Source: an uncultured delta proteobacterium (lineage in GTDB: Bacteria; Desulfobacterota; Binatia; HRBIN30; BPIQ01). Taken from it: 64,000 nucleotides of DNA. The position numbers and the translations under genes are program-made. Location of the stretch: contig CAVXGR010000005.1 of the NCBI GenBank assembly GCA_963761335.1, positions 229,684 through 293,683 on the forward strand, read 5' to 3'. Shown here piece after piece: positions 2,603-47,194 of this stretch; positions within the stretch are counted from its first letter, which is position 1, and each line of letters starts with the position of its first letter. The notes beneath the pieces were generated by a model that saw only the letters and a program-made list of their open reading frames with translations, was not told the DNA's origin and did not search any database.

Positions 2603-3823
2603 ATGCAAAGAGTGCTGTTGACAGCTGTCCTCTGTACCGCGTGGCTGGCTGCACCCGGGGGTGCTACCGCGGCCACGCACACGCTCCGATCTGCGAATCT
2701 GCGCAGCGCGCCGGTGCTGTCTCCGGCGACCCTGGTGAGGACGGTGCCCGCTGGAGCGGAGGTGGAGGTGCGCGGCCAGCGGGTCGTCGGCTCGGCGCGC
2801 TGGCTTTTGGTCAGTGCCGGTGGCGAGAGCGGATGGATACGCGCCGATCTGATCGCCGACGAGGCAAGTGCGCCGGCAGATGCGCAGGCGTCTGCGCCGA
2901 TCGCCGCCGAGGTGGCGGCGCCGCCGCCGGCCGCGGCGCCGGTTGCCGCGGCAGCCGCAGAGGAGAGTGCCCCACAGCCTGAAACCGCTCCCGCGTTCCC
3001 GCGCCTCGGTGCATCGCTGGCGCCGGATCTCGGCGTGGCCGAGGCGGAGGCGGCGACCGTGGCGCGCGCGCCGATCCCGCCGGCCGGCGGCTTGCCGTGG
3101 CCGCTGCAGCTCCTCCACGACTCGCAGTTCCTGCTGGCGGCGGCGCTGGTCTCGCTGGTTCTGGTGCGCAGTGAGCGGCGCCTGGCGCAGCACTGGAGCA
3201 GCTGGCGCGAGCAAGCGGTTTCCGTGGTGCACTCCGAGCCGGTGGCCTCGCATGTCGACGAGGCGCTGCGCAACGAAGGCATCCGGCGCGAGTACGACCG
3301 GCTGCTCAGCGCTCTGTGCGCCATCGAGCGCCTGCTGGTGCCGAACGGCAGCAACCGATCGACCTTCTCGCAGCTCACCGAGATGGTGGCCAGCGCCAAC
3401 ATCGCCGACAGCGCCGAGCGGGTGGAGACGCTGGACGCGATTCGCCGGCGCATGCTCGAGGTGGGGATGCTGCCGGCGTTCGGCCGCGTCTTCGAGGGCC
3501 TCTCCGGCTACGCTTTCACGCCGCAGCTGTGCGACAAGCTGCAGGGATTCATGGCGGTGCCCGACGCCGAGATCGAGGAGCGCTTCGATCAGGTGCGCGA
3601 AGGAGCGCGGCTCTGCTTCGACGATCTCCGCCGCCATCTGGTCGCCGACATCCTGCAGGGAGGCGCCATCACCTTTCTCTTCAGCCGCCAGCTGGAGCTG
3701 CTCGACAACGCCCGCGCCGCAGCCCAGAGCGCCTCGGCCCGCGGCTGGAGCATGCGCGACGTCACCTCGCTGCGCCAGATGGTGGTAGCCCAGCTGTTCG
3801 AGGCGCCGAAGACAGACGCGTAA
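2603..3823 (+). CDS. membrane protein with N-terminal signal peptide and bacterial SH3-like domain, Ala/Pro-rich linker, one TM helix, cytoplasmic C-domain of unknown function
   Basis: GGAG-like RBS before the ATG. SH3b-like segment (RSAPVLSPATLVRTVPAGAEVEV..GESGWIRADLI). Hydrophobic helix WPLQLLHDSQFLLAAALVSLVLV. Confidence 0.45.
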   Translation: MQRVLLTAVLCTAWLAAPGGATAATHTLRSANLRSAPVLSPATLVRTVPAGAEVEVRGQRVVGSARWLLVSAGGESGWIRADLIADEASAPADAQASAPIAAEVAAPPPAAAPVAAAAAEESAPQPETAPAFPRLGASLAPDLGVAEAEAATVARAPIPPAGGLPWPLQLLHDSQFLLAAALVSLVLVRSERRLAQHWSSWREQAVSVVHSEPVASHVDEALRNEGIRREYDRLLSALCAIERLLVPNGSNRSTFSQLTEMVASANIADSAERVETLDAIRRRMLEVGMLPAFGRVFEGLSGYAFTPQLCDKLQGFMAVPDAEIEERFDQVREGARLCFDDLRRHLVADILQGGAITFLFSRQLELLDNARAAAQSASARGWSMRDVTSLRQMVVAQLFEAPKTDA

Positions 3824-3886
3824 GTCCGCCCGCCCAGGGGCGTTGGCAGCGGCGGTCGGCTGCGGTAGAAGTCGCGGGCGATTGCC

Positions 3887-6712
3887 ATGGGGAGTGTCGA
3901 GACGATTGCCCGCAGCGGGAGCGTGCACCTGCTGGTGGTGCCGCACACCCACTGGGATCGCGAGTGGTACCAGCCCTTCCAGGAGTTTCGCCGCCGCCTG
4001 GTGCGTCTCGTCGATCGCCTGCTGGACACCCTCGATGCCGATCCCGAGTTCTCGCACTTCCATCTCGATGGCCAGACGATCGTCCTCGAGGACTATCTGG
4101 AGATTCGCCCGGAGCGCGGCGCGCAGCTCCGCCGGCTGATCCGCTCCGGCCGTATCGCCGTCGGCCCGTGGTACGTGCTCCCCGACGAGTTCCTGGTCAG
4201 CGGCGAGTCGATCATCCGCAACCTGCGCATCGGCCAGCGCACCGCCGCCGCCTTTGGTGCCGACGCCGCGGTCGGCTATCTCCCGGATCAGTTCGGGCAC
4301 ATCGCTCAGATGCCGCAGATCCTCGCCGGCTTCGGGCTGTCGTCGGCGGTGGTCTGGCGCGGAGTCGGCGCCGACGTGCGGAGAACCGAGTTCGCCTGGC
4401 AGGCGCCGGACGGCACCGAGGCGTTCACCGTCTACATGCCTTCGGGGTACTCCCTGGGCCGCGCCCTGCCGCTCGAGCCGGCGGCGCTGCGGAAGCGGCT
4501 GGCCGCCCTGGTCGGCGAGATCGAGCCCTTCCGGCAGATTTCCTCGGTGCTGATCATGAACGGCACCGACCATCAGGAGGCGCAGGCCGGGCTGCCGGCG
4601 GCGCTGCGCGCCGCGCTCGCTCCCGTGGAGGGAGTCAGCGCCGAGATCGCTTCCCTGTCCGCGTACGTTGCCCGTGCCCGCCGCGAGGCGGGGGAATCGC
4701 CGGTGCGCCACGCCGGCGAGCTGCGCAGCCCGCTGCGCGCCCATCTTCTCCCGGGAGTCACCTCGGTGCGGGTGCGGCAGAAGCAACGCGACTTCGCCAA
4801 CCTCAGCCGCCTCGAACGCTACGCCGAGCCGCTGGCGACCTGGGCCGACGCCCTTGCCGGCCGCCGCGATCTGACGGCCTTCACCGAGCACGCCTGGAAG
4901 CTCTCGGTGCAGAACCATCCGCACGACTCCATCTGTGGCTGCTCCGTCGATCAGGTCCACCGCGACATGGAATTCCGCTTCGATCAGGTGGACCTGATCC
5001 TGCGTCAGGTACAGCGGCAGGCCTTCGCGGCCATCGCGGCGTGCGTCGATACCACCGCCGCCGCCGAGACGGCGCTGCTCGTCTACAATCCGAACCCGGC
5101 CGGCCGCGCTCTCCTCGACGTCGAGGTTCCTCTCGACCTCTCCGGCGGCGTTTCGCTGCACACTCTCGCCGGCGAGGGCATCGTTGCGCAGGTGGAGCAG
5201 GGATCGGGCGCGTTGCTGCTCGACGTCGAGCTGCCACCGGCGGCGCTGCGCGGCGAGATCGAGGGGCTGCAGTCGCGCGAGTTCCTGGGTTTCTTCCTGA
5301 ACGGCATTCGCTTCGATCGGGCCGATGGCCGGCTGAAGGTGCAGATCGTCGCTGACCTGGTGCCGCGCGGTAGCTTCGACGTCATGGCGGCGCGGGGGCG
5401 TTGGCTCGAGCTGCTCGACGATGCGTCGCTCGAGCTGGTCCACGTCCACGCCCGCACCGCCACCCCGGCGCGTCTGATCGCCGCCGCGCCGCTCAACGGA
5501 CACGGCCTGACCCTGCTCTCGCTGCGACACCATGCATCGGCCGAGACGCCTCCGAGTCCCTTCGCGGTCGGCGTGGGCTCGATCGAGAATCGCTGGTACC
5601 GCGTCGCCGTGGGCGACGACGGCTCGCTGTCCATCGCCGACAAGGAGCTGGGCCTCGAGCTCGGGCGCTGCAACTGGTTCATCGACGAGCCCGACCGCGG
5701 CGACGAGTACAACTTCGATCCGCCGGCGCCGGTGCGCTCGGTGAGCGCCCCGATCTCGTCGCCGTCGATCAGCGTGGAGAGCGGGCCGGCCGTGGCGCGC
5801 CTGTGCCTGCGGATGACCTATCGGATTCCCCGCCGTCTGGATGCCGACCGCGAAACGCCCTCGACGGAGATCGCCGAGGTGCCGATCCGCTCGACGGTAT
5901 CTCTGTATGCGGGCGTGAAGCGCATCGACTTCGTGACCGAGGTCGACAACGGCGCCGCCGACCATCGCCTGCGGGTGCACTTCGAGACGCCGCTGCAGGC
6001 GCCGGCGGTACGCGTCGAGCAGGCCTTCTGCACCGTCGAGCGCCCGCTCGAGCTGGAGGCGGGCGGGGAGATCGAGCAGCCGATCGGCACCACGCCGCAG
6101 AAGACGTTCTGCGCCATCGGCGACGGGCGACTGGGCGTGGCCCTCTTCAACCGCGGCATCCCGGAGATCGAGGCGCGCCGATCGAACGGCGGGACCGAGC
6201 TGGCCATGACCCTGGTGCGCGCCGTGGGCTGGCTGTCGCGCGGCGACCTGCGCCTGCGCAAGGGCCATGCGGGACCGGCGATGGAGACGCCGGAGGCGCA
6301 GTCGCCGGGGCCGCACCGCTTCGAGTACGCGCTCACCACCTTCGCGGGCGATTTCGAGGCGGCGAACATCGTCGCCGAGGCGCACCGCTTCGCGTATCCG
6401 CCGCAGGCAGTCGCCGCCGAGCGGCACGAGGGGCATCTGCCGGCGGACGCCGCCCTGATGCGCTGCGACAACCCCGCGGTGGTGATCTCGGCACTGGAGC
6501 CGGGCCGCTCCCCGGAGAGGTATCGCGTGCGCGTGTACAACTCCTCGGCGGCGTCGCAGTCGGTGTGCCTCGGCTTTCCCGGAGCCCGGCGGGTGCGCTC
6601 CGTGAACCTGGCCGGGCAGCCGGCGGCCAGCGGCCTGCGTTGCGGCGGCGATACGGCACGCGGCAGCCTGCGCCCCTTCCAGATCGCCACGCTGGAGATC
6701 ACCCGCGCATGA
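3887..6712 (+). CDS. glycoside hydrolase family 38 alpha-mannosidase (mannosylglycerate hydrolase-like)
   Basis: N-terminal GH38 catalytic signature LLVVPHTHWDREWYQPFQE and GPWYVLPDEFLVSGESIIRNL. 941 aa, the typical length. Confidence 0.8.
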   Translation: MGSVETIARSGSVHLLVVPHTHWDREWYQPFQEFRRRLVRLVDRLLDTLDADPEFSHFHLDGQTIVLEDYLEIRPERGAQLRRLIRSGRIAVGPWYVLPDEFLVSGESIIRNLRIGQRTAAAFGADAAVGYLPDQFGHIAQMPQILAGFGLSSAVVWRGVGADVRRTEFAWQAPDGTEAFTVYMPSGYSLGRALPLEPAALRKRLAALVGEIEPFRQISSVLIMNGTDHQEAQAGLPAALRAALAPVEGVSAEIASLSAYVARARREAGESPVRHAGELRSPLRAHLLPGVTSVRVRQKQRDFANLSRLERYAEPLATWADALAGRRDLTAFTEHAWKLSVQNHPHDSICGCSVDQVHRDMEFRFDQVDLILRQVQRQAFAAIAACVDTTAAAETALLVYNPNPAGRALLDVEVPLDLSGGVSLHTLAGEGIVAQVEQGSGALLLDVELPPAALRGEIEGLQSREFLGFFLNGIRFDRADGRLKVQIVADLVPRGSFDVMAARGRWLELLDDASLELVHVHARTATPARLIAAAPLNGHGLTLLSLRHHASAETPPSPFAVGVGSIENRWYRVAVGDDGSLSIADKELGLELGRCNWFIDEPDRGDEYNFDPPAPVRSVSAPISSPSISVESGPAVARLCLRMTYRIPRRLDADRETPSTEIAEVPIRSTVSLYAGVKRIDFVTEVDNGAADHRLRVHFETPLQAPAVRVEQAFCTVERPLELEAGGEIEQPIGTTPQKTFCAIGDGRLGVALFNRGIPEIEARRSNGGTELAMTLVRAVGWLSRGDLRLRKGHAGPAMETPEAQSPGPHRFEYALTTFAGDFEAANIVAEAHRFAYPPQAVAAERHEGHLPADAALMRCDNPAVVISALEPGRSPERYRVRVYNSSAASQSVCLGFPGARRVRSVNLAGQPAASGLRCGGDTARGSLRPFQIATLEITRA

Positions 6713-6746: not shown

Positions 6747-8267
6747 ATGAGCGGCCCCCGGCTGGCCGATCTGCTCGCCGACGTCGAGGTTCTCGAGCGG
6801 CGCGGCTCCGTCGACATTCACATCGGCCACATTCGCTCCGATTCGCGGCTGGTCGAGCCGGGCGACCTCTTCGTCTGTCTGCCCGGCTACCGCACCGAGG
6901 GCGGCGAGAAGCGCGCCGATCGCCACCTGTTCGTCCCCGAAGCGCTGCGGCGCTGCGCCGCCGCCCTGGTGGTGGAGCGAGAGCCCGACACGAAGCTGCC
7001 GGCGCATCTGCCGGTGGTGCGGGTGCGCGACTGCTGGGCGGCGATCGCGGCGCTCTCGTGCGGGTTCTACGGCCAGCCCTCGCGACAGCTGCGGATGGTC
7101 GGTGTCACCGGCACCAGCGGCAAGACCTCGACCACCTACTTCATCGATTCGGTTCTGTCCGCAGCGGGCCTGCCCGCGGCGCGCCTGGGCACGATCGAGT
7201 ACAAGCTCGGCAGTGTGCGTCTGCCGGCGTCGCAGACGACACCCGAAGCTCCCGAGATGCAGCAGCTGCTGCGCCGCGCGCTCGACGAGGGCGCCGCCGC
7301 AGTGGTGATGGAGGTTTCGTCGCATGCGCTCGAGCTGCGGCGCGTGCAGGGCATCGCCTACGACGTCGCGGTATTCACCAATCTCAGCCAGGACCACCTG
7401 AACTTCCACCCCGACATGCACAGCTATCTGCGCGCCAAGGGGCGCCTCTTCGAGGAGCTCGGCAGCGGCGGCAAGGACGCCGTGGCGGTGGTGAACCGCG
7501 ACGATCCGGCGAGCGAGTACATCGAGAAGGTCAATCGCGGGCGGCTGCTGACTTACGGAATCAGCCCTCGGGCGGACGTGCGGGCGGAGGACGTCTCCAT
7601 CGGCCAGGGCGGCAGCCGTTTCCGGGCGCGCACCCCCGCCGGCGACGTCGACGTCTCGCTGGCGCATCTCGGCGAGTACAGCGTCCACAACGCGCTGGCG
7701 GCGGCGGCGACGGGAGTGGCACTGGGCCTGCCGCTGGACGAGATCGCCCGCGGCATCGACGCCGCTCCGCAGGTTCCCGGGCGTTTCGAGCTGATCGATT
7801 GCGGCCAGCGGTTTGCGGTGATCGTCGACTACGCCCACAAGCCCGACGCCTTGGAGCGCGTCATCCGCAGCGTGCGCGGCCTGCGGCCGCGGCGGGTGAT
7901 CACGGTTTTCGGCTGCGGCGGCGACCGCGACCGCGGCAAGCGTCCGATCATGGGCGCGATCGCGGCGCGCCTGAGCGACGTCGCCGTGGTGACCTCCGAC
8001 AACCCGCGCAGCGAGAGCCCGGAGGCGATCATCGAGGAGATCTGCGGCGGAATTCCGGCAGACTCCGCGGCCGAGGTGGTCGTCGAGCCGGACCGCGCTC
8101 GGGCCATCGACACCGCCATGCGCCTGGCGCGGGCGGAGGATGCGGTGATCATCGCTGGCAAGGGCCACGAGAACTACCAGCTGCTCGGCGACCGCCGCAT
8201 CCACTTCGACGACCGCGAGATGGCGCGCCAGGCGCTGGCGCGCCGCACCGACCCACCGAGCCACTGA
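6747..8267 (+). CDS. murE: UDP-N-acetylmuramoyl-L-alanyl-D-glutamate--2,6-diaminopimelate ligase
   Basis: Mur ligase P-loop GVTGTSGKTST and the DNPR motif, with full-length MurE architecture. Start chosen at MSGPRLADL; the alternative start is at 6726. Confidence 0.85.
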   Translation: MSGPRLADLLADVEVLERRGSVDIHIGHIRSDSRLVEPGDLFVCLPGYRTEGGEKRADRHLFVPEALRRCAAALVVEREPDTKLPAHLPVVRVRDCWAAIAALSCGFYGQPSRQLRMVGVTGTSGKTSTTYFIDSVLSAAGLPAARLGTIEYKLGSVRLPASQTTPEAPEMQQLLRRALDEGAAAVVMEVSSHALELRRVQGIAYDVAVFTNLSQDHLNFHPDMHSYLRAKGRLFEELGSGGKDAVAVVNRDDPASEYIEKVNRGRLLTYGISPRADVRAEDVSIGQGGSRFRARTPAGDVDVSLAHLGEYSVHNALAAAATGVALGLPLDEIARGIDAAPQVPGRFELIDCGQRFAVIVDYAHKPDALERVIRSVRGLRPRRVITVFGCGGDRDRGKRPIMGAIAARLSDVAVVTSDNPRSESPEAIIEEICGGIPADSAAEVVVEPDRARAIDTAMRLARAEDAVIIAGKGHENYQLLGDRRIHFDDREMARQALARRTDPPSH

Positions 8268-8330
8268 GCCACCGGGCCACTGTTTCCGCCCTCGCGAAAC
8301 TCCCCGGGGTGGGTTACGCTGAGGCGACGC

Positions 8331-9080
8331 ATGCGAAGGCTGATCGCCATCGTCTTTGTCCTGGTCACCGCGACTCCCGCTCTGGCAAGCCCGGTGGCCA
8401 CCGGTCGATTGGACTACACGCTGTCGTGGAACGGCATCCCCGCCGCCAACGCCACCGTGGATGTCTGGCGAACTCGCCACGACGGCAAGGAGGAGTACCG
8501 CGTCGAGGCCACGGCGCGCACCAACCGCATCGTCGATCTGTTGTGGAGCCTGCGCGCCTATGCCGGCTCGCGCTTCACCAACAGCGCGCCCACACCGCTG
8601 TGGTTTCGCTTCGACCGCTACGTGAACGACGAGCGCAGCGTCACCGAGATCGCCTTCGATTCCTCGTCGCCGCATGCCGTCGGCACCCTGGTCCGACCAC
8701 GGGGCTCGAAGGTGATGGACGTCGACGACCCGGGAGTGCTCGACCCGATCACGGCCATCTTCCATGCGCTCTCGCAACCGGTGAGCGTCGGCGATGACCT
8801 GCAGTACGAGCTGTTCACCGGGGAAGCCCTGTATCGCGTCAAGCTGCACATCGAGGACGAGGAGCTCCTGGACATTGCCGGCGCGACCCTGCCGACGTGG
8901 CGGGTGACGCCGCAGCTGTGGAAGATCGGCACAGGTGTCGACAAGCGCCTCCGCGACGCCACCATCTGGGTCTCGCAGGCGCCCGTGCGCACGGTGCTGC
9001 GCATTCGCAGCGACGTCTTCATCGGCGCCGTGTACTGCGACCTGCAACGTCTCCCGGCGGCTGCGCCGCCGTCGGGTTGA
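8331..9080 (+). CDS. DUF3108-like secreted protein
   Basis: Signal peptide MRRLIAIVFVLVTATPALA. About 250 aa with good GC3 codon bias. The family assignment is from memory only. Confidence 0.4.
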   Translation: MRRLIAIVFVLVTATPALASPVATGRLDYTLSWNGIPAANATVDVWRTRHDGKEEYRVEATARTNRIVDLLWSLRAYAGSRFTNSAPTPLWFRFDRYVNDERSVTEIAFDSSSPHAVGTLVRPRGSKVMDVDDPGVLDPITAIFHALSQPVSVGDDLQYELFTGEALYRVKLHIEDEELLDIAGATLPTWRVTPQLWKIGTGVDKRLRDATIWVSQAPVRTVLRIRSDVFIGAVYCDLQRLPAAAPPSG

Positions 9081-9085
9081 GAGGC

Positions 9086-9196
9086 CCTCTCAAAACCTGG
9101 GCAAGACGATTCCGCCGGCCCGCGGGCCGAGTCGAAGCGGCGTCTCGCCGCTTCGGAAAGCGCCGGGACGGCGCTTCTACTTTGGTGTTGAGACAG
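9086..9196. repeat. MITE-like repeat family A, roughly 110 bp, with CTGTCTCAA/TTGAGACAG-type terminal inverted repeats and the internal palindrome GAAGCGGCGTCTCGCCGCTTC
   Basis: Near-identical copy at 12643-12752. Partial copies at about 23125-23175 and 62090-62140. Confidence 0.7.
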
Positions 9197-9911
9197 CCTC
9201 TTGCGCGGGGGGGGACAGCGGATCCGCTCTGCGGACCTCGCCTTCCCTTCGCGGCTGTCATGTCCCGTCCCTCCCGCGGTGAAAATTGTACAGGGATGCG
9301 GCGACGGGGACCCCTGAGGACGCTTTTCTCTGGCAATACGATCGATATGCGGAGCAGAATGCCGATGGTTGGGCCGTTGCTATTGCGTGCAGAATGTATT
9401 GTCAGCGACTCTTCGTCGCCGTTGTGGTGTCGATGTTGGTTGGCGTCCTGCCGGTGCAGGCGCGACGCCTGAATGTATCGACGCAAATTGTCACTTCCGA
9501 TGCCGTCGGCGGCTATGACGCCGCGGCTCTTCCCTTCGATCCGATGACCTTCGAGAGCCCCCATTCGGGATGGGGCGAGCTCGGTAAGACCCGGTGGTGG
9601 GCCATCCTCGTCGCCCAGGTCGTGGTCCGCTTGGGGATCGTCGGCACGGAGTATTCCCCCCGGCTGGTCGAGCTCACCGAGGGACTCATGCACCACCCCG
9701 AGCTCGACTGGCAGATGCGCCTCGGTCGAGCGCAGAAGACCCGGCTGAACTTCCAGCTGAAGGCGGCCCATGGCGGCCCGAGGGCGGGGGTGTTGTTCAG
9801 ATGGTAGGGCGGCTCAGCATCTCAGTATCTCGGTGCCTCAGTGTCTCGGTACATTCGGTGGCCTCATTGAGCCACCGAGACACCGGGTTACCGAGCCACC
9901 GGGTCACCGGG

Positions 9912-11270: not shown

Positions 11271-12335
11271 ATGCAGGTCGGCGCAGCCGTCATCTTTCAG
11301 AACCTCGGACGCCCGCGGAGCGATCGCAGCGTCTATGCGGACGAGCTTCGCCTCGCGGATCTGATCGAGCCGCTCGGTTTCGACTCGCTTTGGAGCGTCG
11401 AGCACCATTTCACCGACTACACCATGGTGCCGGACGTCACCCAGCTTCTCGCCTACATGGCGGGGCGCACGCGGCGCGTGTCGCTCGGCACCATGGTGGT
11501 GGTCCTGCCGTGGCACGACCCAGTGCGTGTCGCCGAGGAGATCTCGATGCTCGACATCCTCGCCGACGGGCGCCTCATCCTCGGCATCGGCCGCGGCGCC
11601 GGGCGCGTCGAGTTCGAGGGGCTGCGCGTGCCTCAGTCCGAGTCGCGCGGCCGTTTCGTCGAGGCGGCGGAGCTGCTGCTCGGCGCCCTCGAGGAGGGGC
11701 GGACCGAGTTCTCCGGCACCCACTACCGCGTGCCGCCGCGCGACATCCGCCCGGCACCCTTCAAGTCCTTCCGCGGCCGCACCTACGGCGCCATGGTCAG
11801 CCCGGAGACGGCGGAGATCCTGGCGCGTCTCGGGGTAGGCATGCTGATCATCCCGCAGAAGGCGTGGGAGGACATTGCCGCCGATCTCGCCCACTATACC
11901 CGCGCCTGCGCCGAGCACGGGCGCCAGCCGCTGCCGCCGGTGGCGGCCTGCTGGGTGTACTGCGCCGCCAGCGAGCGCCGGGCCGAGGCGGGGGCGCGCC
12001 AATGGATCGGCAACTACTGGAAGTCGGCGCTGGCGCATTACGAGATCGGCGGCCAGCATTTCAAAGGGCTCAAAGGCTACGAGTACTACGGCAAGCTGAC
12101 GGAGATGATGGAGTCGGCCGGTCCCGGCGTGCACGATCTCATCACCGAAGCGTTCGTCGCCACGCAGGTGTGGGGCACGCCAGAGCAATGCCTGGAGAAG
12201 ATCTCCGACATCGCCGCCCGCGTCGCCAACGATCACTTCGTCGGCGTCTTCAGCTACGGCGGTATGCCCTACAACGCGGCGGAGAAGAGCATGCGGCTCT
12301 TCGCGTCCGAGGTTGTCCCGAAGCTGCGCGGGTGA
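11271..12335 (+). CDS. LLM-class (luciferase-like) flavin-dependent oxidoreductase
   Basis: Typical LLM N-terminus (AVIFQNLGRP..LGFDSLWSVEHHFTDY) and the overall TIM-barrel monooxygenase pattern. Confidence 0.8.
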   Translation: MQVGAAVIFQNLGRPRSDRSVYADELRLADLIEPLGFDSLWSVEHHFTDYTMVPDVTQLLAYMAGRTRRVSLGTMVVVLPWHDPVRVAEEISMLDILADGRLILGIGRGAGRVEFEGLRVPQSESRGRFVEAAELLLGALEEGRTEFSGTHYRVPPRDIRPAPFKSFRGRTYGAMVSPETAEILARLGVGMLIIPQKAWEDIAADLAHYTRACAEHGRQPLPPVAACWVYCAASERRAEAGARQWIGNYWKSALAHYEIGGQHFKGLKGYEYYGKLTEMMESAGPGVHDLITEAFVATQVWGTPEQCLEKISDIAARVANDHFVGVFSYGGMPYNAAEKSMRLFASEVVPKLRG

Positions 12336-12830
12336 AGTGGCTCGGTGGCTCGGTTATCGGGTTGTCGGGTTATCGAGTTTTGGTGATGGTAGCCGGTGGG
12401 TTTCAACCCGCGGCTGTGGCGTTTGGGCGCCTGCGCCCCTGACGGGGCGCGTGCAGAAGCCTGCCAATTTCCCCGGGTTTCACCCGGGGCTACACGCCTG
12501 CGCCCCCTTCGGGGGCGGCATCCGAATCGGCCTCGCCTGCGCCCCCTTCGGGGCGGCATCCGAATCGGCCTCGCCTGCGCCCCGGGGGCGGCATCCGAAG
12601 CGGCCGATGGGCGTCCAACCTCGTCGCCGGGGGTTGAACAGTCTGTCTCAAGACCTCGGCAAAACGATTCCGCAAGCCCGCGAACCAAGTAGAAGCGGCG
12701 TCTCGCCGCTTCGGAAAGCGCCGGGACGGCGCTTCTACCTCGGTTTGAGACAGCTTCTGAGACCCCCGGCTACCATCAACAGACCCGCCAACCCGCCAAC
12801 CCGATAACCGAGCCACCGAGCCACCGGCTT
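12336..12830. mobile_element. composite non-autonomous repeat element bounded by 28-bp perfect inverted repeats
   Basis: GTGGCTCGGTGGCTCGGTTATCGGGTT at 12336-12365 is the exact reverse complement of 12797-12826. The interior holds family-B palindromes (CCCCGGGTTTCACCCGGGG, GCGCCCCCTTCGGGGGCG x3) and one full family-A MITE (12643-12752). Confidence 0.6.
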
Positions 12831-14262
12831 ACTTTCCGAACCGCTGCAGCGACATCGGATCGAAGAGATTTTCGCGCAGCGGCACGCGGCGCTGGAAGGG
12901 CGCCTGCGCGTCGGGGCGCATGCCGCCGAGGGTAGCGCGGTCCTCCTTGAAGTTCTCGGCGCAGGCCCAGACCTGGGTGCTGGCGGGCAGCCATTCCTGA
13001 TCCGGCGGTGAGCCAGCGGGATGATTGATCCTCGCCATCGTCTGGTAGGTGTTGATCAGCTCGCCGTTCCAGCTGAACTTCCGGTTCCACGAGCCGTCCC
13101 AGGTCTCGGCGTCGATCCACAGCTCGATGCGGCCGAAGAGGTAGTACTTGTCCTTGGGAGTGGCCTCGATGATCCACATCGGCCGCTTCGCCAGGCCGGC
13201 GTCGATCGGTGCCCAGGGCAGACCGGTCCAGCCCTCCTGGCGGTAGCCGACGGTCGGCGGATTGCGGTCGGTGAGGATGATCCAGCCGCCGCCGGGAATC
13301 GGGTCGATCTTCACCGGGCCGTTCACCGACTCCGGATCGACGACGCGGAGCCCGTCCTTGTGGCCGATCACCTTCCAGGTGAAGTCCTCCGGCTTGCCGT
13401 CGAAGAAGAAGCCGTCGTCGCCGCTGAGGTCGGAGCCGAGATAGCCGTCGGAGCGGTTCGCCGGGCTCACGGCGCGAACGCGGCGGATGGCGGGCACGTA
13501 GGCCCAGACTGAGTCGCGCTTGTCGGGGTCGCGGTAGCGCCAGGTGAGCGAGGCCGTGCCCTCGAGGTCGGCGGGCTTGAGGGCGGCGCCGAGGAAGCGG
13601 CTCTGCAGGTTGAGCGGGTTCGGCTGGCGATACTTGGGGGTCTGGCCGTCGAAGAACTGAAACCAGCCGTCGGCGACGATTTCGCGGTCGACACCGGTGT
13701 GGTTGAGCATGGTGACCAGGGTGCGGTTGTAGGAGTCGCCGCCGTACCAGTACGCCAGGAACTGGTTCCAGGCGATCTTCACCCCGGCCTTGGGGTCGTG
13801 CTCGTCGATCTTCGGGAAGGGAATGCCGTAGTAGAAGTCCGGCTGCTTTCCGGTGGCGCGATCGATGATGGTGCCGCGGTCGTCGACGTCCAGGCGCGTG
13901 GCGTTCTGCTCGGTAGCGTCGAGGAACGACTTCTCCCAGGTACCGGTTCCCAAGGGGTAGTCGATGATCGGGTTGCGGTACTCTCCCTTGGCGTAGTGCG
14001 CCAAGATCTCGGGTGGCAGCAGATCCTTGGCGAGCTGCGCGTTCTCCTTGCCGAGGACGTCGCCCACCTTCAGCCCGGGTGCTACCTCCGCCCCCGCGGC
14101 CGCCGCCTGCGGCGCGGCTTGCGGCTTGGCGGCGGTCGACTGCGGCGTGGGTTTCGCCGCATCGGCGGCGAAGGCGGCGGGCAGCGGCAGCAGCAGCGCC
14201 AGAGCGATTGCGAGACAGCCGGCGTGGTCGCCGGCGTTGCGGATCAAGTATCGGATGCGCAT
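12829..14262 (-). CDS. DUF1329-family periplasmic/outer-membrane-associated protein (lipoprotein-sorting-like)
   Basis: 477 aa with a signal peptide. Size and composition fit the DUF1329 family, which is often linked to uptake of hydrophobic substrates. The assignment is from memory. Confidence 0.55.
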   Translation of the reverse strand: MRIRYLIRNAGDHAGCLAIALALLLPLPAAFAADAAKPTPQSTAAKPQAAPQAAAAGAEVAPGLKVGDVLGKENAQLAKDLLPPEILAHYAKGEYRNPIIDYPLGTGTWEKSFLDATEQNATRLDVDDRGTIIDRATGKQPDFYYGIPFPKIDEHDPKAGVKIAWNQFLAYWYGGDSYNRTLVTMLNHTGVDREIVADGWFQFFDGQTPKYRQPNPLNLQSRFLGAALKPADLEGTASLTWRYRDPDKRDSVWAYVPAIRRVRAVSPANRSDGYLGSDLSGDDGFFFDGKPEDFTWKVIGHKDGLRVVDPESVNGPVKIDPIPGGGWIILTDRNPPTVGYRQEGWTGLPWAPIDAGLAKRPMWIIEATPKDKYYLFGRIELWIDAETWDGSWNRKFSWNGELINTYQTMARINHPAGSPPDQEWLPASTQVWACAENFKEDRATLGGMRPDAQAPFQRRVPLRENLFDPMSLQRFGK

Positions 14263-15521: not shown

Positions 15522-16640
15522 ATGTCGCTGCGCAACGTCGCCGTCGTCGGCTTCGCCCAGGAACCCATCGTCGCCCGTGACCAGCACCGCACGGCGCAGG
15601 AGATGCTCTACCCGCAGGTGCGGCGGGCGCTCGCCGACTGCGGCGTGGCCCGCGACGACATCGACTACCAGGTGGCGGGCTCCGCCGACTACATCGACGG
15701 GCGGCCGTTCGGCTTCGTCGCCTCGCTCGACTACATGGGCTCCTGGCCGCCGCGGCAGGACCTCCATCTGGAGATGGACGCCGCCTTCGCCGCCTATTAC
15801 GCCTGGCTGCGCCTGCAGACCGGCGAATGCGACACCGCCATGGTGGTGGGCTACGGCAAGACCTCGGAGGGCGAGCCCGACGTGGTGCTGAACCTCCAGC
15901 TCGAGCCCTTCTACCAGGGCGCCATCGGCCTCGACCCGACCTCGACCGCAGCTCTGCAGGCGAGCGCCTACATGGCGCGCAGTGGCGCTACGGATCGCAC
16001 CTTCGCGGAGGTGGCGGCGCGCCGCCGCGCCGCCGGGGCCCGCAACCCCGACGCGCAGGTGCGCGAGCCCGCTTCCGCCGACGACCTGCAGCGCACTCCC
16101 TTTGCGGTGGCGCCGCTGCGCCGTGGATACATCCCTCCCGTCGGCGAGAGTGCCGTCTGTCTCATCCTCGCCGCCGAGGGCAAGGCGGAGCGCATGTGCA
16201 GCAAGCCCGCCTGGATTCACGGAGTCGACCAGCGCGCCGAGCTGCAGACCCTGGGGGCGCGCGACCTGTCGCGCAGCGCCGGCGCCCGGATGGCGACGGA
16301 GAAGGCGCTGGCGATGGCCGGCCTCGAGAGTGCCCGCCAGGTCGATGTGCTCGAGCTGATGGCGACCAACCCCGCCGAGGAGCTGATCCTGCGCGAGGCC
16401 ATGGGCGTTGCGGCGGAGGGAGGCGTGCCGGCGGTGAACCCCTCGGGCGGACCGCTCACCGGGAACCCGCTGATGATGACCGGTTTGATTCGCCTGGGCG
16501 AGGTCTTCCGCCAGCTGAGCGGCGCGGCCGCGGCGCACGCCGTGAGCGGCGCCGAGCGCGGCATCGCCCACGCGGTTGAGGGGCAGTGCCTGCAGCAGAA
16601 CGTCGTCTGGGTTCTCGGGCGAGAGCGGAGGTGGAAATGA
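15522..16640 (+). CDS. thiolase-superfamily protein (SCP-x/Ltp2-like, non-canonical, probable aldolase/lyase)
   Basis: Thiolase fold with an NPSGG motif. At the nucleophile position the sequence reads ..EMDAAFAA.. with no Cys, and the GHP motif is replaced by GNPLMMTG. Confidence 0.75.
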   Translation: MSLRNVAVVGFAQEPIVARDQHRTAQEMLYPQVRRALADCGVARDDIDYQVAGSADYIDGRPFGFVASLDYMGSWPPRQDLHLEMDAAFAAYYAWLRLQTGECDTAMVVGYGKTSEGEPDVVLNLQLEPFYQGAIGLDPTSTAALQASAYMARSGATDRTFAEVAARRRAAGARNPDAQVREPASADDLQRTPFAVAPLRRGYIPPVGESAVCLILAAEGKAERMCSKPAWIHGVDQRAELQTLGARDLSRSAGARMATEKALAMAGLESARQVDVLELMATNPAEELILREAMGVAAEGGVPAVNPSGGPLTGNPLMMTGLIRLGEVFRQLSGAAAAHAVSGAERGIAHAVEGQCLQQNVVWVLGRERRWK

Positions 16641-17788
16641 AGCGGCCGGTCGCCGTCGTCGGCGTCGGGCAGACGCATCACAGCTCGCGCCGGGTGGACG
16701 TCAACACCGCCGAGCTGGTGCGTGAAGCGATCGACCGCGCTCTCCTCGACGCCGGTCTCGAGCATCGCGATATCGACGCCATCATCATCGGCAAGGCTCC
16801 GGACATGCTCGAGGGCATCATGCAGCCCGAGCAGCTCCTCATCGGCGCCGTCGGCGGCCATCTCAAGCCCGTCCTGCGCGTGCACACCGCCGGCTCGGTC
16901 GGCGCCTCGACGGCCCTCGCCGGCGTCACCCACGTCACCTCGGGGCTGTTCGACCGCGTGCTGGTGGTCGCCTTCGAGAAGCAGTCGGAGGGCAACGTCA
17001 TGTGGGCGCTGTCGCCGAACATGCCGTTCACGGCGCCGCTGGTGGCCGGGGCGGGCGGCTTCTTCACGCCCTACATCCGCGCCTACATCCGACTGACGGG
17101 GGCGCCGCCGCACATCGGCCCGATGATCGCCGCCAATGCGCGCGCCAACGCCGGCCGCAACCAGTACGCGCACCTGCGCGAGCCGGTGACGGTCGAGGAC
17201 GTCATGCAGTCGCCGATGCTGTGGGACCCGATCCGCTACCTGGAGACCTGCCCGTCGTCGGACGGCGCCGTCGCCCTCGTGATCTCCAGCGAGGAGCAGG
17301 CGCGCAAGGGGCCGCGCAAGCCGGCCTGGGTGAAGTCGGGCGCCTCCTACGCCGAGGCCATGTGGGTGCCGGGCCGCGATCAGGTGAACCCCACGGCCGG
17401 ACGGGTGTGCTCCAAGGCGGTCTATGACGCCGCCGGCATCACCGACCCCTGGAACCAGATCGACGTCGCCGAGATCTACGTGCCGTTCTCGTGGTTCGAG
17501 GCGATGTGGCTCGAGAACCTCGGCTTCTGCGGCCACGGCGAGGGCTGGAAGATCGTCGACCGCGGCGAGCAGAAGTTCGGTGCGCACCTGCCGATCAATC
17601 CCTCCGGCGGCGTGCTGTGCACCAACCCCATCGGCGCCTCCGGCATGCTGCGCCTCGGCGAGGCGGCGCTGCAGGTGATGGGGCGCGCCGGCGAGCATCA
17701 GGTCGAGGGGGCGAAGGTCGCCCTCGGCCACGCCTATGGCGGCGGTGCGCAGTACTTCGCCATGTGGATCGTCGGCAGCGAGCAGTAG
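16637..17788 (+). CDS. thiolase-superfamily protein (SCP-x/Ltp2-like, non-canonical)
   Basis: ATGA start/stop overlap with the previous gene. NPSGG motif. The nucleophile Cys is absent (HTAGSVGAS) and the GHP motif reads TNPIGASG. Confidence 0.75.
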   Translation: MKRPVAVVGVGQTHHSSRRVDVNTAELVREAIDRALLDAGLEHRDIDAIIIGKAPDMLEGIMQPEQLLIGAVGGHLKPVLRVHTAGSVGASTALAGVTHVTSGLFDRVLVVAFEKQSEGNVMWALSPNMPFTAPLVAGAGGFFTPYIRAYIRLTGAPPHIGPMIAANARANAGRNQYAHLREPVTVEDVMQSPMLWDPIRYLETCPSSDGAVALVISSEEQARKGPRKPAWVKSGASYAEAMWVPGRDQVNPTAGRVCSKAVYDAAGITDPWNQIDVAEIYVPFSWFEAMWLENLGFCGHGEGWKIVDRGEQKFGAHLPINPSGGVLCTNPIGASGMLRLGEAALQVMGRAGEHQVEGAKVALGHAYGGGAQYFAMWIVGSEQ

Positions 17789-17871
17789 CTCAGTAGCCCA
17801 GTGGCTCGGTAGGTCTGAGTAACGGGCAACCAGTCGATCTCGGCGCCGCAATTCCTCTCAAGGAGCATTTC

Positions 17872-23039: not shown

Positions 23040-23260
23040 GCCCCCCGGCGCTCCGTGATCGTAGCCGGGGGTTTCAACCCCCGGCGGGCGGGAACGATGT
23101 CCCTCCGCACCAAAGAAGCGGCGCGGCAGTGCACGAGGAAAGCGGCGAGACGCCGCTTCTACTTGGCTCACTTGCCGTTGGAAAGCATTCGCCGCCGCTC
23201 AGGCGGCGGCCAGTCGCCGAACGAGTCGCGATGGTCGCCGCGAGGTCCAGCGGCGCCGTA
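23040..23260. repeat. intergenic repeat patch: a CCGGGGGTTTCAACCCCCGG palindrome plus a partial family-A repeat
   Basis: Shares GAAGCGGCGAGACGCCGCTTCTAC with 9130-9185 and 12700-12755. Confidence 0.5.
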
Positions 23261-27987: not shown

Positions 27988-30900
27988 TCACGACGCCTGC
28001 GCCGTGCCGCGACCCTTCCACAGCGCGAAGATGGCCGGATAGACGGTCAGCTCCAGCAGGAACGAGGTCGCCAGCCCGCCGACCATGGGCGCGGCGATGC
28101 GGCGCATGACGTCGGCGCCGGTGCCGGTGCTCCACATCACCGGCAGAAGGCCGATGAAGGTGGTGAGCACGGTCATCAGCTTCGGGCGGATGCGCCGCGC
28201 GGCGCCCTCGACGATGGCCTCGCGCAGGTCCGCCGGAGATCGCATCCGGCCCTCCTCCCGGGCGCGCTCGTAGGCGAGCTTCAGGTAGAGCAACATGACC
28301 ACGCCGGTCTCGGCGTCCAGACCGGCGAGGGCGATGAGCCCCACCCAGACGGCGACGCTGGTGTTGTAGCCGAGCAGGTAGAGGAGCCACACGGCGCCGA
28401 TCAGAGAGAACGGCACCGCCGCCAGGACGATCGCCACCTCGGTCGCCGAGCCGGTGTTGAAGTAGAGCAGCAGGCAGATGAGGAAGAGCGTGACCGGCAC
28501 CACCACCTTGAGGCGCTCCTTGGCGCGCTCGAAGTACTGGAACTGACCGGCCCACTCGAGGCGCAGGCCCGCAGGCAGGCGCACCTGGCGGGCGACCACC
28601 TCCTTGGCCTGCGCGACGTACTCCGCGATCGCCCGGTCCCCGGTGTCGACGAAGACGTAGCCCACCAGGCGGCCGCCCTCGCTGCGGATCATCGGTGGTC
28701 CGGTGGCGAACTCGATGTCGGCCACCTGCCGCAGGGGCACCTGCGCGCCTCCCGGAGTCGCCACCAGCACGCGCTCGAGGGCCGTCGGGTCGTCGCGGAA
28801 ATCGCGAGCGTAGGCGACGCTCACCGGGTAGCGCTCGCGCCCCTCGACGGTCTCGGACACCTGCATGCCGCCGATTGCCGTCTGCACCACGTCGTTGACG
28901 TCGGCGACGCGCAGCCCGTAGCGCGCCGCCGCGGCGCGATCGACTTTCACGTCGAGATAGAAGCCGCCGGTGGAGCGGTCGGCGAAGGCGCTGCGCGTGC
29001 CGGGGATCGCCGCAACCGCCTGCTCGATGCGCACCGCGGTGTCCTCGATGGTCGCCAGATCGTCGCCGAAGATCTTGATGCCGAGTGGGCTGCGAATGCC
29101 GGTGGAGAGCATCTCGGTGCGCGTCTGGATCGGCATCCACCAGATGTTCGGCATGCCGGGATAGCGCAGCGCGCGATCCATCTCGGAGATCAGGTCGTCC
29201 CAGGTCATTCCTTGCCGCCACTGCTCCCGCGGCTTGAGCATTACCACCGTCTCGACCATGCCGATCGGCGCCGGATCGGTGGGTGAGCTGGCGCGCCCCA
29301 TCTTGCCGAAGACGCTCATCACCTCGGGGAACTGCTTGAGCTTGCGGTCCATCGACTGCAGCAGCACGCTGGCCTCGCTCATCGACATTCCCGGCGGAGC
29401 GGTCGGCATGTAGAGGATGGCGCCCTCGTTGAGCGGCGGCATGAACTCGCTCTGGATCTGCAACGCCGCCGGAACGGTCAGGGCCACGGCGATCACCGCC
29501 AGGGCGATGACCGAGCGACGGAAGCGCACCACGAAACGGACCACCGGCACGTAGAGGGCGATGAGAATGCGGTTGAGCGGGTTGGCCTCCTCGCCGCGGA
29601 TGCGGCCGCGCACGAAGATGGCCGCCAGCGCCGGGGTGAGCGTGATCGCCAGCAGCGCCGCGAAGCCCATGGAGTAGGTCTTGGTGAAGGCCAGCGGCCG
29701 AAACAGGCGGCCCTCGACCGCCTGCAGGGTGAACACCGGCAGAAAGGAGACGGTGATCACCAGGAGCGAGAAGAAGATGCTCGGGCCCACCTCCTGCATG
29801 GCCCCGATCAGCACCTGCAGTCGGTCGCCGGGACGGCCGACCTCCTCCCAGACCTCGAGCTTCTTGTGGATGTTCTCGATGATGATGATCGAGGCGTCGA
29901 CCATGGCGCCGATGGCCACGGCGATGCCCCCGAGCGACATGATGTTGATGGTCAGCCCCTGGTAGAACATGGGCACGAAGGAGAGCAGCACGGCCAGTGG
30001 CAGGGTGACGATCGGCACCAGAGCGCTGCGCGCGTGCAGCAGGAAGACGAAGATCACCAGGCTGACCACCAGCATCTCCTCGATGAGCGTGTGGCGCAGG
30101 GTGTCGATCGAGGCCTCGATCAGCCCCGAGCGATCGTAGGTGGTGACCACCTTCACGCCTGCCGGCAGCGTCTTCTGCAGCTGCGCCAGGCGCTCCTTCA
30201 CCGCGCCGATGACGCGCAGGGCGTTCTCCCCGTAGCGCATGACGACGATGCCCCCGACCACCTCGCCGCGGCCGTCGAGATCGGCGAGGCCGCGGCGCGG
30301 CGCCGGACCGAGCTTCACCTCGCCGACGTCGCGGATGTAGACCGGGGCGCCCGTGGTCCCGACCTTCAGCGGCACGAGCTCGAGATCCTGCTTCTTCTTC
30401 ACGTAGCCGCGACCGCGCACCATGAACTCGTGCTCGGAGAGCTCCAACACCTGGCCGCCGACCTCCTGGTTCGACTCGCGCACCGCCTGCACCACCTCGC
30501 GCAGGGGGATGCCGAGGGCCACCAGCTTGTTCGGGTCGAGAAGGATCTGGTACTCCTTGCCGAAGCCGCCGACCGAGGCGACCTCGGCGACTCCGGGCAC
30601 GCTCTCGATGGCGTAGCGCAGGTTCCAGTCCTGCAGGCTGCGCAGCTCCTGGAGGTCGAGCGTGCCGCTCTCGTCGACGAGCGCGTACTCGAACACCCAG
30701 CCGACACCCGTGGCATCGGGGCCGAGGACCGGCGTCACCCCCTGCGGCAGCGCATTGGAGACCTCGTCGAGATACTCGAGGACTCGAGAGCGCGCCCAGT
30801 AGATGTCGGTTCCGTCCTCGAAGATGGCGTAGACGAAGGACATGCCGAACATCGACTGGCCGCGCACGTACTTGATGCGCGGCGCCGCCAGGAGGCTTGC

Positions 30901-31110
30901 GGAGATTGGATAGGTGATCTGGTCCTCGACGATGTCGGGGCTCTGTCCGGGCCACTCGGTGAAGACGATCACCTGCACGTCCGACAGGTCCGGTATGGCG
31001 TCGAGCGGCGATTGGCGCATCGACCACGCCCCCCATGCCGCCAGGGCGGCGACGAAGAGCAGCGTGAGAAGAGGGTGCCGCGCGCAGGCGGCGATGACCC
31101 GGCCGATCAT
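27988..31110 (-). CDS. heavy-metal efflux RND pump, CusA/CzcA family
   Basis: 1040 aa. N-terminus MIGRVIAACARHPLLT with conserved HME-RND blocks throughout. The 279-aa upstream extension of the raw ORF is Arg-rich junk, so the start was taken at the internal Met. Confidence 0.9.
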   Translation of the reverse strand: MIGRVIAACARHPLLTLLFVAALAAWGAWSMRQSPLDAIPDLSDVQVIVFTEWPGQSPDIVEDQITYPISASLLAAPRIKYVRGQSMFGMSFVYAIFEDGTDIYWARSRVLEYLDEVSNALPQGVTPVLGPDATGVGWVFEYALVDESGTLDLQELRSLQDWNLRYAIESVPGVAEVASVGGFGKEYQILLDPNKLVALGIPLREVVQAVRESNQEVGGQVLELSEHEFMVRGRGYVKKKQDLELVPLKVGTTGAPVYIRDVGEVKLGPAPRRGLADLDGRGEVVGGIVVMRYGENALRVIGAVKERLAQLQKTLPAGVKVVTTYDRSGLIEASIDTLRHTLIEEMLVVSLVIFVFLLHARSALVPIVTLPLAVLLSFVPMFYQGLTINIMSLGGIAVAIGAMVDASIIIIENIHKKLEVWEEVGRPGDRLQVLIGAMQEVGPSIFFSLLVITVSFLPVFTLQAVEGRLFRPLAFTKTYSMGFAALLAITLTPALAAIFVRGRIRGEEANPLNRILIALYVPVVRFVVRFRRSVIALAVIAVALTVPAALQIQSEFMPPLNEGAILYMPTAPPGMSMSEASVLLQSMDRKLKQFPEVMSVFGKMGRASSPTDPAPIGMVETVVMLKPREQWRQGMTWDDLISEMDRALRYPGMPNIWWMPIQTRTEMLSTGIRSPLGIKIFGDDLATIEDTAVRIEQAVAAIPGTRSAFADRSTGGFYLDVKVDRAAAARYGLRVADVNDVVQTAIGGMQVSETVEGRERYPVSVAYARDFRDDPTALERVLVATPGGAQVPLRQVADIEFATGPPMIRSEGGRLVGYVFVDTGDRAIAEYVAQAKEVVARQVRLPAGLRLEWAGQFQYFERAKERLKVVVPVTLFLICLLLYFNTGSATEVAIVLAAVPFSLIGAVWLLYLLGYNTSVAVWVGLIALAGLDAETGVVMLLYLKLAYERAREEGRMRSPADLREAIVEGAARRIRPKLMTVLTTFIGLLPVMWSTGTGADVMRRIAAPMVGGLATSFLLELTVYPAIFALWKGRGTAQAS

Positions 31111-35599: not shown

Positions 35600-36010
35600 C
35601 ACAAGTCAGCCGCTACTTCGAAAATCTGCTGGGTGAAGGTCTGGCGGAGCCCCGGCGCTTGGGGTGGAGATTATCGCCCCGGAGGGGCGCGGGCATGTAG
35701 CCCCGGGTGCCAACCCGGGGACCGCGTCCCGATTGCCCGGATCTGCGCCCCGGAGGGGCGCAGGCGTAGGGGCCGCGTGAATCACGTCGATGAGCTTTCC
35801 ACGCACCCAGCGGTGATCATCGGCGTACAGGCGCGACATCGACGAAATTTTGCCCGCGCCCCTGGCGGGGCGCCTATGACGGACCGTGCACTTTTCCCCG
35901 GGTTTCACCCGGGGCTACACGCCACTGCCCCTCCGGGGCGAACTTCGCCGAGGCCGGAACCCCCAAATCTCTTCCCGGGTCAGAACCCCGGCCTCATTTT
36001 CATCGTCTGC
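35600..36010. repeat. MITE-like repeat family B (roughly 400 bp, full-length copy)
   Basis: Related copies at 58409-58625 (5' part, above 90% identity) and 56040-56710 (reverse orientation with an internal duplication of about 205 bp). Imperfect terminal inverted repeats of about 70 bp starting GAAAAT and ending CGCCCCGGAGGGGCG. Fragments also lie inside 12420-12640. Confidence 0.7.
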
Positions 36011-36579: not shown

Positions 36580-36824
36580 CGATCGCGCTCTTCTTCGACG
36601 AGCCGAGCGACATCGATCTTTGGCAGTGACCTCGCGTCTACCGAGGGCTTGGCGACGAGCCGCTTTCCGACCCGCGTGAGCTTCGGGCCTGGGGCCGTGC
36701 GGCTCAGCCGAATGCTGGAGTCCTCGAGCACGACCTCGATCTCGGTCCCCGGCACGAGCCCGGCCCGCCGCCGGAGATCCGCGGGAATCACCACTCTTCC
36801 TGCCCGATCAATGGTAGTTTTCAT
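36567..36824 (-). CDS. vapB: AbrB/MazE/SpoVT-type antitoxin, VapB-like
   Basis: 85 aa. Swapped-hairpin-like N-terminus RAGRVVIPADLRRRAG. Overlaps the vapC start by 13 nt. Confidence 0.65.
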   Translation of the reverse strand: MKTTIDRAGRVVIPADLRRRAGLVPGTEIEVVLEDSSIRLSRTAPGPKLTRVGKRLVAKPSVDARSLPKIDVARLVEEERDRWPW

Positions 36825-47149: not shown

Positions 47150-47194
47150 GCGGCGGTGCGGGTCGCGAGCACCGCAGTGCCGCCGCCGAAGGTT

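Follow-up and report, generated by a model that had tools for sequence, protein, structure and literature searches.

Octamer-array hairpin and REP-type loop cluster in an intergenic repeat mosaic of an uncultured Binatia bacterium

Described bacterial repeats and the present locus

The element considered here is a perfect inverted repeat that encloses a cluster of short palindromes, found in a 64,000-nucleotide stretch of the genome of an uncultured Binatia bacterium (contig CAVXGR010000005.1; the whole stretch is called the window below, and coordinates refer to it). Several described bacterial repeats invite comparison. Repetitive extragenic palindromic (REP) elements of Proteobacteria, together with the bacterial interspersed mosaic elements (BIMEs) and REP doublets forming hairpins (REPINs) built from them, are mobilised by REP-associated tyrosine transposases (RAYT, TnpA-REP) and are recognised as imperfect palindromes headed by GTAG that form inverted doublets, cluster together and undergo tandem amplification (PMC3333891, PMC2817692). 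A second kind comprises the heptamers of Xanthomonas (GGGAATC) and Nostoc (GGGGA(T/C)T), which are ~90% intergenic and lie on average 28 nt from the upstream open reading frame (ORF); each Xanthomonas genome carries 70-75 convergent pairs able to form a stem-loop, these heptamers have no link to insertion sequences, and their function is unknown (PMC4692102). The short tandemly repeated repetitive (STRR) hairpins of cyanobacteria are located between co-transcribed genes (PMC2670836). The TAACTGA heptamers of Beggiatoaceae are abundant, intergenic and tandem, of unknown origin and common to distant lineages, but they differ from the present repeats in being direct rather than inverted, in having a single motif and in lying just upstream of start codons (PMC4679880).

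The Binatia locus probably consists of two independent layers. The outer one is a mirrored 8-nt array hairpin, one instance of a lineage-wide feature; the inner one is a REP/BIME-type cluster that would have colonised the loop stepwise. The parts of this arrangement can be read directly: the hairpin is mirrored, its loop holds a REP/BIME-type cluster, one element sits inside the loop of another, and the parts occur independently of one another. The region is an intergenic repeat mosaic, ordinary if elaborate, and its 28-bp inverted repeat is not a transposon end.

The arms most closely resemble the Xanthomonas/Nostoc heptamers, and the STRR hairpins are also close. In all of them the unit is not a multiple of three, the arrays are intergenic and near an upstream stop codon (1 and 4 nt here), and paired arrays can form a stem-loop. 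The differences are that the unit here has 8 nt (7-8 nt across Binatia), one nucleotide off the described length; that many unrelated units coexist instead of one dominant G-rich motif; that the Binatia units lack quadruplex-forming G-runs; and that the loop is colonised by other repeats. The loop contents in turn are REP/BIME-like, being 20-40-nt imperfect GC-rich palindromes with a GTAG/CTAC foot, in part arranged as inverted doublets, clustered, amplified in one case as 38 bp x3, and extragenic right after stop codons. An interior hairpin, GTAGCCCCGGGTGAAACCCGGGG, resembles the Pseudomonas mendocina REP GTAGCCCGGATGCAATCCGGG (PMC3333891, PMC2817692). Unlike described REP/BIME systems, the host belongs to the uncultured Binatia, the ~45 window ORFs scanned include no RAYT, and the cluster is enclosed by an octamer-array hairpin, which falls outside the REP/BIME description. 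In the literature searched, whose coverage is partial, there is no description of such octamer or foldback arrays in bacteria generally or in Binatia. The 7-8-nt array hairpins, of which one frames this locus, are new as a variant of a kind of bacterial repeat that is known but unexplained.

The array hairpin and its counterparts in Binatia

The 27-mer GTGGCTCGGTGGCTCGGTTATCGGGTT has exactly two matches in the window, at 12337-12363 on the forward strand and at 12798-12824 on the reverse strand, and none of 100 dinucleotide shuffles gave any 27-mer match. Since G12364 also pairs with C12797, the perfect inverted repeat is 28 bp long (12337-12364 / 12797-12824). A preliminary description of this DNA had reported such a repeat, and the exact matches confirm it, with the coordinates displaced by 1-2 bases. 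Pairing extends imperfectly over 42 nt (90%) and a further 19 nt (89%); blastn aligns 69-nt arms at 87% identity (12337-12405 versus 12758-12824). The 494-bp interval that contains them is the entire spacer separating two convergent genes, from stop codon to stop codon. Because the repeat begins 1 nt past one stop and finishes 4 nt ahead of the other, the element amounts to the whole convergent spacer.

Each arm is a period-8 array. The left arm (12337-12379), which starts 1 nt after the TGA of a monooxygenase gene, reads GTGGCTCG GTGGCTCG GTTATCGG GTTGTCGG GTTATCGA and is resolved by Tandem Repeats Finder (TRF) into stretches at 12337-12354 (100%) and 12352-12379 (85%). The right arm (12783-12826) is its complement, ACCCGCCA ACCCGCCA ACCCGATA ACCGAGCC ACCGAGCC ACCGG, with TRF stretches at 12783-12809 and 12807-12826; its matched part stops at 12824, 4 nt before the stop codon of the DUF1329 gene on the other side, while trailing array bases reach 12826. 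Read from the outside inwards, the units of both arms follow the order GTGGCTCG, GTGGCTCG, GTTATCGG, GTTG(T/G)CGG and so on. This mirror order of variant units makes one arm a copy of the other.

The 10-mer GTGGCTCGGT of the octamer array has seven occurrences in the window. All belong to octamer arrays, which lie in intergenic DNA at the 3' ends of genes at four loci within 8.2-17.8 kb (8255, 9890, 12337-12815 and 17801). The relationship previously proposed between the terminal motif and the octamer arrays elsewhere in the window is therefore real. A second unit family, GGTTGTTA, makes hairpins at 47190-47272 and 54217-54456. The latter comprises 21.8 perfect copies (174 bp) starting within the 3' end of the dxs gene, whose TAG stop falls in the third unit, the final ~8 codons being encoded by the array; an inverted partner array (ACCTAACAACC...) follows ~30 nt further on. 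Since the copies are perfectly identical, the array may have expanded very recently or be a hypervariable site sensitive to assembly.

Solo octamer arrays, devoid of an inverted partner, overlap gene ends at 8246-8280 and 17783-17812. In a Mur-ligase gene the stop lies within the third unit (CACTGAGC) of the solo array; in a thiolase gene it lies in the first unit (CAGTAGCT), which is then reiterated as CAGTAGCC, CAGTGGCT and CGGTAGGT. This hints that some arrays begin as duplications of the stop-codon region. Seeding by a duplicated stop-codon octamer, an idea prompted by the array at 17783-17812, does not fit the 12337-12826 locus. Another speculation, that the octamer units repeat the GT[AG]G head on which a RAYT-like enzyme would act, is likewise set aside, as it is a misfit with units such as CGCGAAGG.

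For comparison, 52 Binatia loci around DUF1329 homologues were assembled with the window into a set of 858 kb; the loci come from independent metagenome-assembled genomes (MAGs) of different studies, with long contigs among them. Inverted pairs of 7-8-nt arrays in narrow gaps behind stop codons, with units that differ by locus and by genome, are a feature of these Binatia. A reverse-complement partner lies within 300 nt of 19 of the 47 period-7 arrays and 19 of the 65 period-8 arrays, as against 3/47 and 1/65 in a reverse-only control and 2/41 for period-9 arrays. The partner frequency of period-6 arrays was not above controls in the same set. When gaps were classified by a simple GC3-based gene call (GC3, the GC content of third codon positions), 55 of the period-7/8 arrays fell in tandem, 12 in convergent and 3 in divergent gaps, the total gap lengths being 73.5, 26.6 and 35.5 kb, respectively. 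Set against these lengths, the counts indicate a depletion in divergent, promoter-side gaps. The array hairpins typically fill their gap, from 1-22 nt past the upstream stop to 4-17 nt ahead of the next start. Their units are diverse (GTGGCTCG, GGTTATCG, GGTTGTTA, GTGACCG and CACGGAGG among the loci) and free of runs of three or four G.

The monooxygenase gene adjoins DUF1329 in none of the 52 related loci, so that orthologous sites can be compared on the DUF1329 side only. Arrays lie directly behind the DUF1329 orthologue in eight loci (L004, L005, L016, L022, L023, L026, L027 and L028), six of them with a clear inverted pair, and the units vary (GTGACCG, GTGAGCCG, GGTTGTT, AGTGTTC and others). 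In L025 and L029 merely 6-9 nt are found behind DUF1329, ahead of the same downstream gene (78-85% nucleotide identity). The loops of related hairpins measure from 0 to ~160 nt, the latter in L026. In L028 the gap behind the DUF1329 orthologue (3425-3958) is filled by an inverted repeat of 39 nt (95%) whose arms stand 456 nt apart, and this loop contains three further palindromes, including a GGTGACC array hairpin and a 40-nt palindrome at 95%. L028 thus has a nested composite of its own at the orthologous position, independent of that in the window, and L026 and L028 are parallel expanded cases. As related loops range from empty to expanded, the window element represents the expanded-loop end of a recurring series.

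Other gaps in these loci show further changes. In L027 a 1.7-kb gene (15934-17667) lies between near-identical CACGGAGG array hairpins (region 15876-17807); in the collinear L025 (15665-15732) this gene is absent and one CGCGAAGG-type array hairpin occupies the junction. Array hairpins may mediate or mark gene gain and loss. The convergent gap behind a cyclase gene carries a hairpin with arms of 10-nt units (CACAGATGG+1) in L027 (12319-12436), octamer arrays in L016, a plain inverted repeat in L025 and 9 nt only in L029. The hairpin type in this gap turns over completely between relatives.

Repeat elements of the loop and the flanking genes

Between the array arms lie 404 nt of REP/BIME-type palindromic elements. 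To judge by its sequence, the interior is of REP/BIME type on each hallmark that can be tested. Short GC-rich extragenic palindromes lie at 12388-12414, 12432-12449, 12471-12494, 12499-12516, 12689-12711 and 12716-12738; GTAG feet are found at 12388 and 12689, and CTAC at 12491-12494, 12735-12738 and 12772-12775. Doublets and amplification are represented by the inverted doublet at 12689-12738, by a 38-bp x3 array in the loop and by a 51-bp x4.9 array elsewhere in the window.

The inner left arm (12380-12414, forward strand), recognised by its sequence and by blastn, carries an intact GTAG-headed REP-type hairpin, GTGATG-GTAG-CCGGTGGG-TTTCAA-CCCGCGGC. Within it, 12381-12399 pairs with 12763-12781 (19 nt, 89%), and 12383-12414 has a counterpart of 91% identity in a different intergenic region, at 23055-23085. 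Next comes a copy of the last ~110 nt of a repeat that is bounded by REPs (12415-12520, forward strand), other copies of which lie in the window at 35830-35945 and, in reverse complement, at 56100-56232. This copy contains the palindrome GCGCCCCTGACGGGGCGC (12432-12449), an inverted REP CCCCGGGTTTCACCCGGGG-CTAC (12471-12494) and the palindrome GCGCCCCCTTCGGGGGCG (12499-12516). By blastn, 12429-12517 aligns with 35852-35940 at 79% identity and with 56209-56120 at 78%, and 12470-12517 aligns with 58511-58465 at 86%; in an alignment of four sequences of the repeat end the mean column identity is 80%.

A tandem amplification overlaps this copy at 12495-12605 (forward strand). It consists of 3.0 copies of a 38-bp unit, the palindrome GCGCCCCC-TTC-GGGGGCG plus a linker (GCATCCGAATCGGCCTCGCCT), with a TRF score of 180 and 90% matches; the third copy is degenerate (63% ungapped identity). 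The three tandem units seen earlier in the interior are these, and the "family-B" palindromes reported with them are also present, GCGCCCC..GGGGCGC occurring four times.

The earlier "family A" was described as a complete MITE (miniature inverted-repeat transposable element). It stands as a repeat, since 12622-12758 is 85% identical to 9064-9201 over 139 nt, but the feature (12622-12781, reverse strand) is read here as a REP hairpin, GTAG-CCGGGGG ... TTCAA-CCCCCGG, whose loop is interrupted by ~125 nt. The hairpin is of the same type as that at 12388-12414, and its two halves match the intact copy at 23055-23087. Its GTAG-bearing half, 12763-12781, doubles as the inner right arm, and family A has an inverted repeat of its own (12623-12651 / 12745-12773). 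The insert bears at its centre a REPIN/BIME-like REP doublet (12689-12738), GTAG-AAGCGGCG-TCT-CGCCGCTT cgga AAGCGCCG-GGA-CGGCGCTT-CTAC, the arms of which (12689-12711 / 12716-12738) are 87% complementary. Further copies of the doublet lie at 9131, 62108 and 23140 (reverse complement), and a related 51-bp x5 array is located at 34006-34255. A REP hairpin split by an insert that itself carries a REP doublet supports the idea, already put forward, of small elements inserted into one another.

Every interior part recurs elsewhere in the window without octamer arms, each repeat type having 3-8 copies in the 64 kb. No copy of the interior parts was found in the 52 related Binatia loci. Metagenomes of many environments yielded more than 120 contigs with the 20-mer core hairpin of the doublet, GAAGCGGCGTCTCGCCGCTT. 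The GC content of these contigs is 47-68%, and a contig often holds several copies, often as inverted doublets; the consensus over 137 metagenome instances of the hairpin at 12692 has GT[AG]G directly 5'. Metagenome contigs with GAAGCGGCGTCTCGCCGCTT (L053-L172) also carry 7-8-nt arrays, such as CACGGAGG, CGCGGAGA and ATAGTCG x9.6 with an inverted partner. This joint occurrence indicates that both kinds of repeat extend well beyond Binatia.

The REP-bounded repeat, ~200-340 bp in length, is found at three places, its sites being 35660-35945, 56105-56665, 58450-58625 and 52200-52244. At 56157-56555 it takes the form of a 195-bp x2 tandem duplication with 99% identity, and ~160 bp from the site at 35660-35945 lies a gene pair for a PIN-domain toxin and a MazE-like antitoxin (36106-36824). 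Its end module at 58465-58510 reaches 40 bits with the Rfam model Acido-Lenti-1 (RF01687), above the threshold of 37, and a further site has 33 bits. The segment 12471-12516 had no Acido-Lenti-1 match at E<=1, though it is 86% identical to the passing copy at 58465-58511. In the source genome this family of supposed small RNAs looks like a REP-type doublet (hairpin + CTAC + hairpin). The array at 34006-34255 (51 bp x4.9, 95% matches) is made of REP doublets, GTGG-ACGCGGCG-TCC-CGCCGCGT ... GGCGGGACGCC-TCCTCTAC; a naive ORF call would extend the N-terminus of an outer-membrane efflux gene over this array, but the gene probably starts further downstream. The window has two copies of a region with an RND-type efflux gene (28029-31009 and 36926-39957, 71-80% identical, offset ~8.9 kb); both copies precede an outer-membrane efflux (OEP) gene and thus make up a duplicated efflux operon.

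The genes on either side of the interval are long ORFs with the coding signature of a 67% GC genome (GC3 ~0.9). One encodes a luciferase-like monooxygenase (11271-12335, forward strand; Pfam Bac_luciferase, 1.4e-60; TGA stop at 12333-12335) and the other a DUF1329/LolA-like protein (12829-14262, reverse strand; Pfam DUF1329, 6.9e-34; stop codon at 12829-12831). For the DUF1329 protein there is a database entry of 100% identity (P0001), whose relatives, at no more than 76% identity, come from Candidatus Binatia MAGs. Four ORFs of 98-164 aa inside the interval were considered as genes and rejected: their GC at the three codon positions is flat (0.65-0.74), against 0.69/0.47/0.90 in the flanking genes, which indicates that the interval is non-coding.

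Alternative readings, proposed history and significance

The position and folding of the element raise the possibility that it has been selected at the RNA level, as a two-way terminator or 3'-end stabiliser for whose long stem the repeats were raw material. The fold of the entire interval has an energy of -318 kcal/mol whichever strand is taken (z about -13), an extremely stable structure placed exactly between two stop codons, and hairpins of differing sequence lie behind the DUF1329 orthologue in many genomes. The depletion of arrays in divergent gaps points the same way, as does the finding that canonical terminators are no commoner than chance across the region (3 found versus 7.7 expected). 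The same role has been suggested for the cyanobacterial STRR hairpins (PMC2670836). We nevertheless hold selection on the transcript to be unlikely. The DUF1329 junction is empty in L025 and L029, and the other convergent gaps of the window are hairpin-free. The lone terminator match within the element (12684-12669, reverse strand) is a 6-pair stem inside family A. Searches against Rfam, at the gathering threshold and at E<=1, returned nothing in the interval but a chance-level snoRNA-like match. The sense strand folds better in only ~9 of 21 tandem-gap hairpins; by this admittedly weak test, the transcript shows no mark of selection in its G-U pairs. Finally, a loop of 404 nt filled with repeats would be superfluous in a terminator.

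A larger MITE that captured other elements had been offered as a second way to read the locus, and in its fullest form this would be a single composite foldback MITE, with terminal repeats built of octamers, moved as a unit and carrying or later capturing the inner elements. Like bacterial MITEs (Correia, ERIC, MITEAba12), the element is small, non-coding and intergenic, and it is enclosed by terminal inverted repeats, here perfect over 28 bp and 87% identical over 69 nt. Eukaryotic Foldback (FB) transposons have long inverted ends of short tandem sub-repeats and a variable middle. They belong to another domain of life and another scale, and the mobility of the window element is hypothetical. 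Movement as a unit would also agree with the presence of identical or near-identical array hairpins at more than one place in a genome, as in the CACGGAGG-type hairpins (L027 at 15876 and 17681, L025 at 17951) and the GGTTGTT(A)-type hairpins at 47190 and 54217 of the window and at 11323 of L016, and with the local clustering of same-unit arrays, as local hopping would give.

A composite MITE is nonetheless distinctly improbable. Unlike bacterial MITEs, the element lacks a target-site duplication, a second copy that shares its ends and a related insertion sequence, and its ends are made of tandem sub-repeats. No direct repeat of 2-9 bp was found within 3 nt of either end, the flanks being ...GCGGGTGAA and CGGCTTACT..., and the window contains only the two arms of the 28-mer itself. 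The 22-nt core of the repeat had no match in a one-genome-per-species set of GTDB (596 Gb) or in Joint Genome Institute (JGI) metagenome contigs, neither of which contains the source genome; dispersed copies with the same ends are thus missing from the data searched. The window ORFs scanned encode no transposase of any kind and no integrase. The interior parts occur without the arms, and array hairpins of this type exist in related loci without such interiors. This separate occurrence supports nested insertion and not a single composite MITE.

An integron attC site was also considered and rejected: the ends read GTGGCTC... / ...GAGCCAC and not RYYYAAC ... GTTRRRY, and the genes on the two sides are metabolic and convergent, in an order that is kept whether or not the hairpin is present, with no integrase among the window ORFs scanned. 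An assembly artefact or chance palindrome is scarcely credible, for although this is a MAG contig, and assembly is difficult for palindromes and for perfect short arrays (the one at 54217 has 22 copies), each flanking gene is complete up to its own stop codon, the same architecture recurs in the independent MAGs, long contigs included, and the shuffles put the expectation of a chance palindrome at zero.

Under the reading preferred here, that of an array hairpin with a separately colonised loop, the hairpin would have come first and the loop would have been filled step by step. The arrays may arise and change length by replication slippage, and the symmetry of the arms could be kept by arm-to-arm copying or by selection for pairing. 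REP-type elements would owe their mobility to a RAYT-like single-strand-DNA transposase that acts in trans, its gene lying outside the window. If they land preferentially in existing hairpin or REP DNA, this preference would make them pile up in the loop. The foldback, being very stable on either transcript, might act as a two-way 3'-end barrier, able to block transcription or exonucleases from both sides. The flanking genes would presumably work without the element.

Several points weigh against parts of this account. With no RAYT among the window ORFs scanned, the mobilising enzyme is an assumption, and the order of events (arms, then interior) is deduced from comparison with other loci, not from an empty site here. 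Slippage alone does not explain how one octamer unit comes to occupy several nearby loci, which hints at a copying mechanism. As to the barrier, the transcript-end role has no direct support: neither end of the element has an intrinsic terminator (hairpin + U-run), convergent gaps of only 5-40 nt are numerous in the window, and the tandem-gap hairpins have no sense-strand folding advantage.

It is also possible, though rather doubtful, that the 7-8-nt array hairpins form an undescribed self-propagating class of palindromes in Binatia and perhaps in other uncultured phyla that share the REP hairpin. They would then be foldback elements with ends of tandem sub-repeats, which spread over short range to gaps behind stop codons, turn over fast from species to species and serve as landing sites for REP sequences. 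If such a class exists, the present locus would be its most heavily colonised example.

For the locus itself the outcome is mainly one of clarification, as the region is best annotated as an intergenic repeat mosaic and not as a transposon end. More broadly, the genomes of uncultured Binatia carry many families of 7-8-nt array hairpins squeezed between a stop codon and the next gene, gained and lost among close relatives and drawing further palindromic elements. The heptamer hairpins of Xanthomonas and cyanobacteria have long been known, with no accepted origin or function. Filled, empty and expanded states at orthologous sites, along with the many unit families, make the Binatia a good comparative system, which could address how such arrays originate, how the complementarity of their arms is maintained and whether they have any effect on transcript ends.

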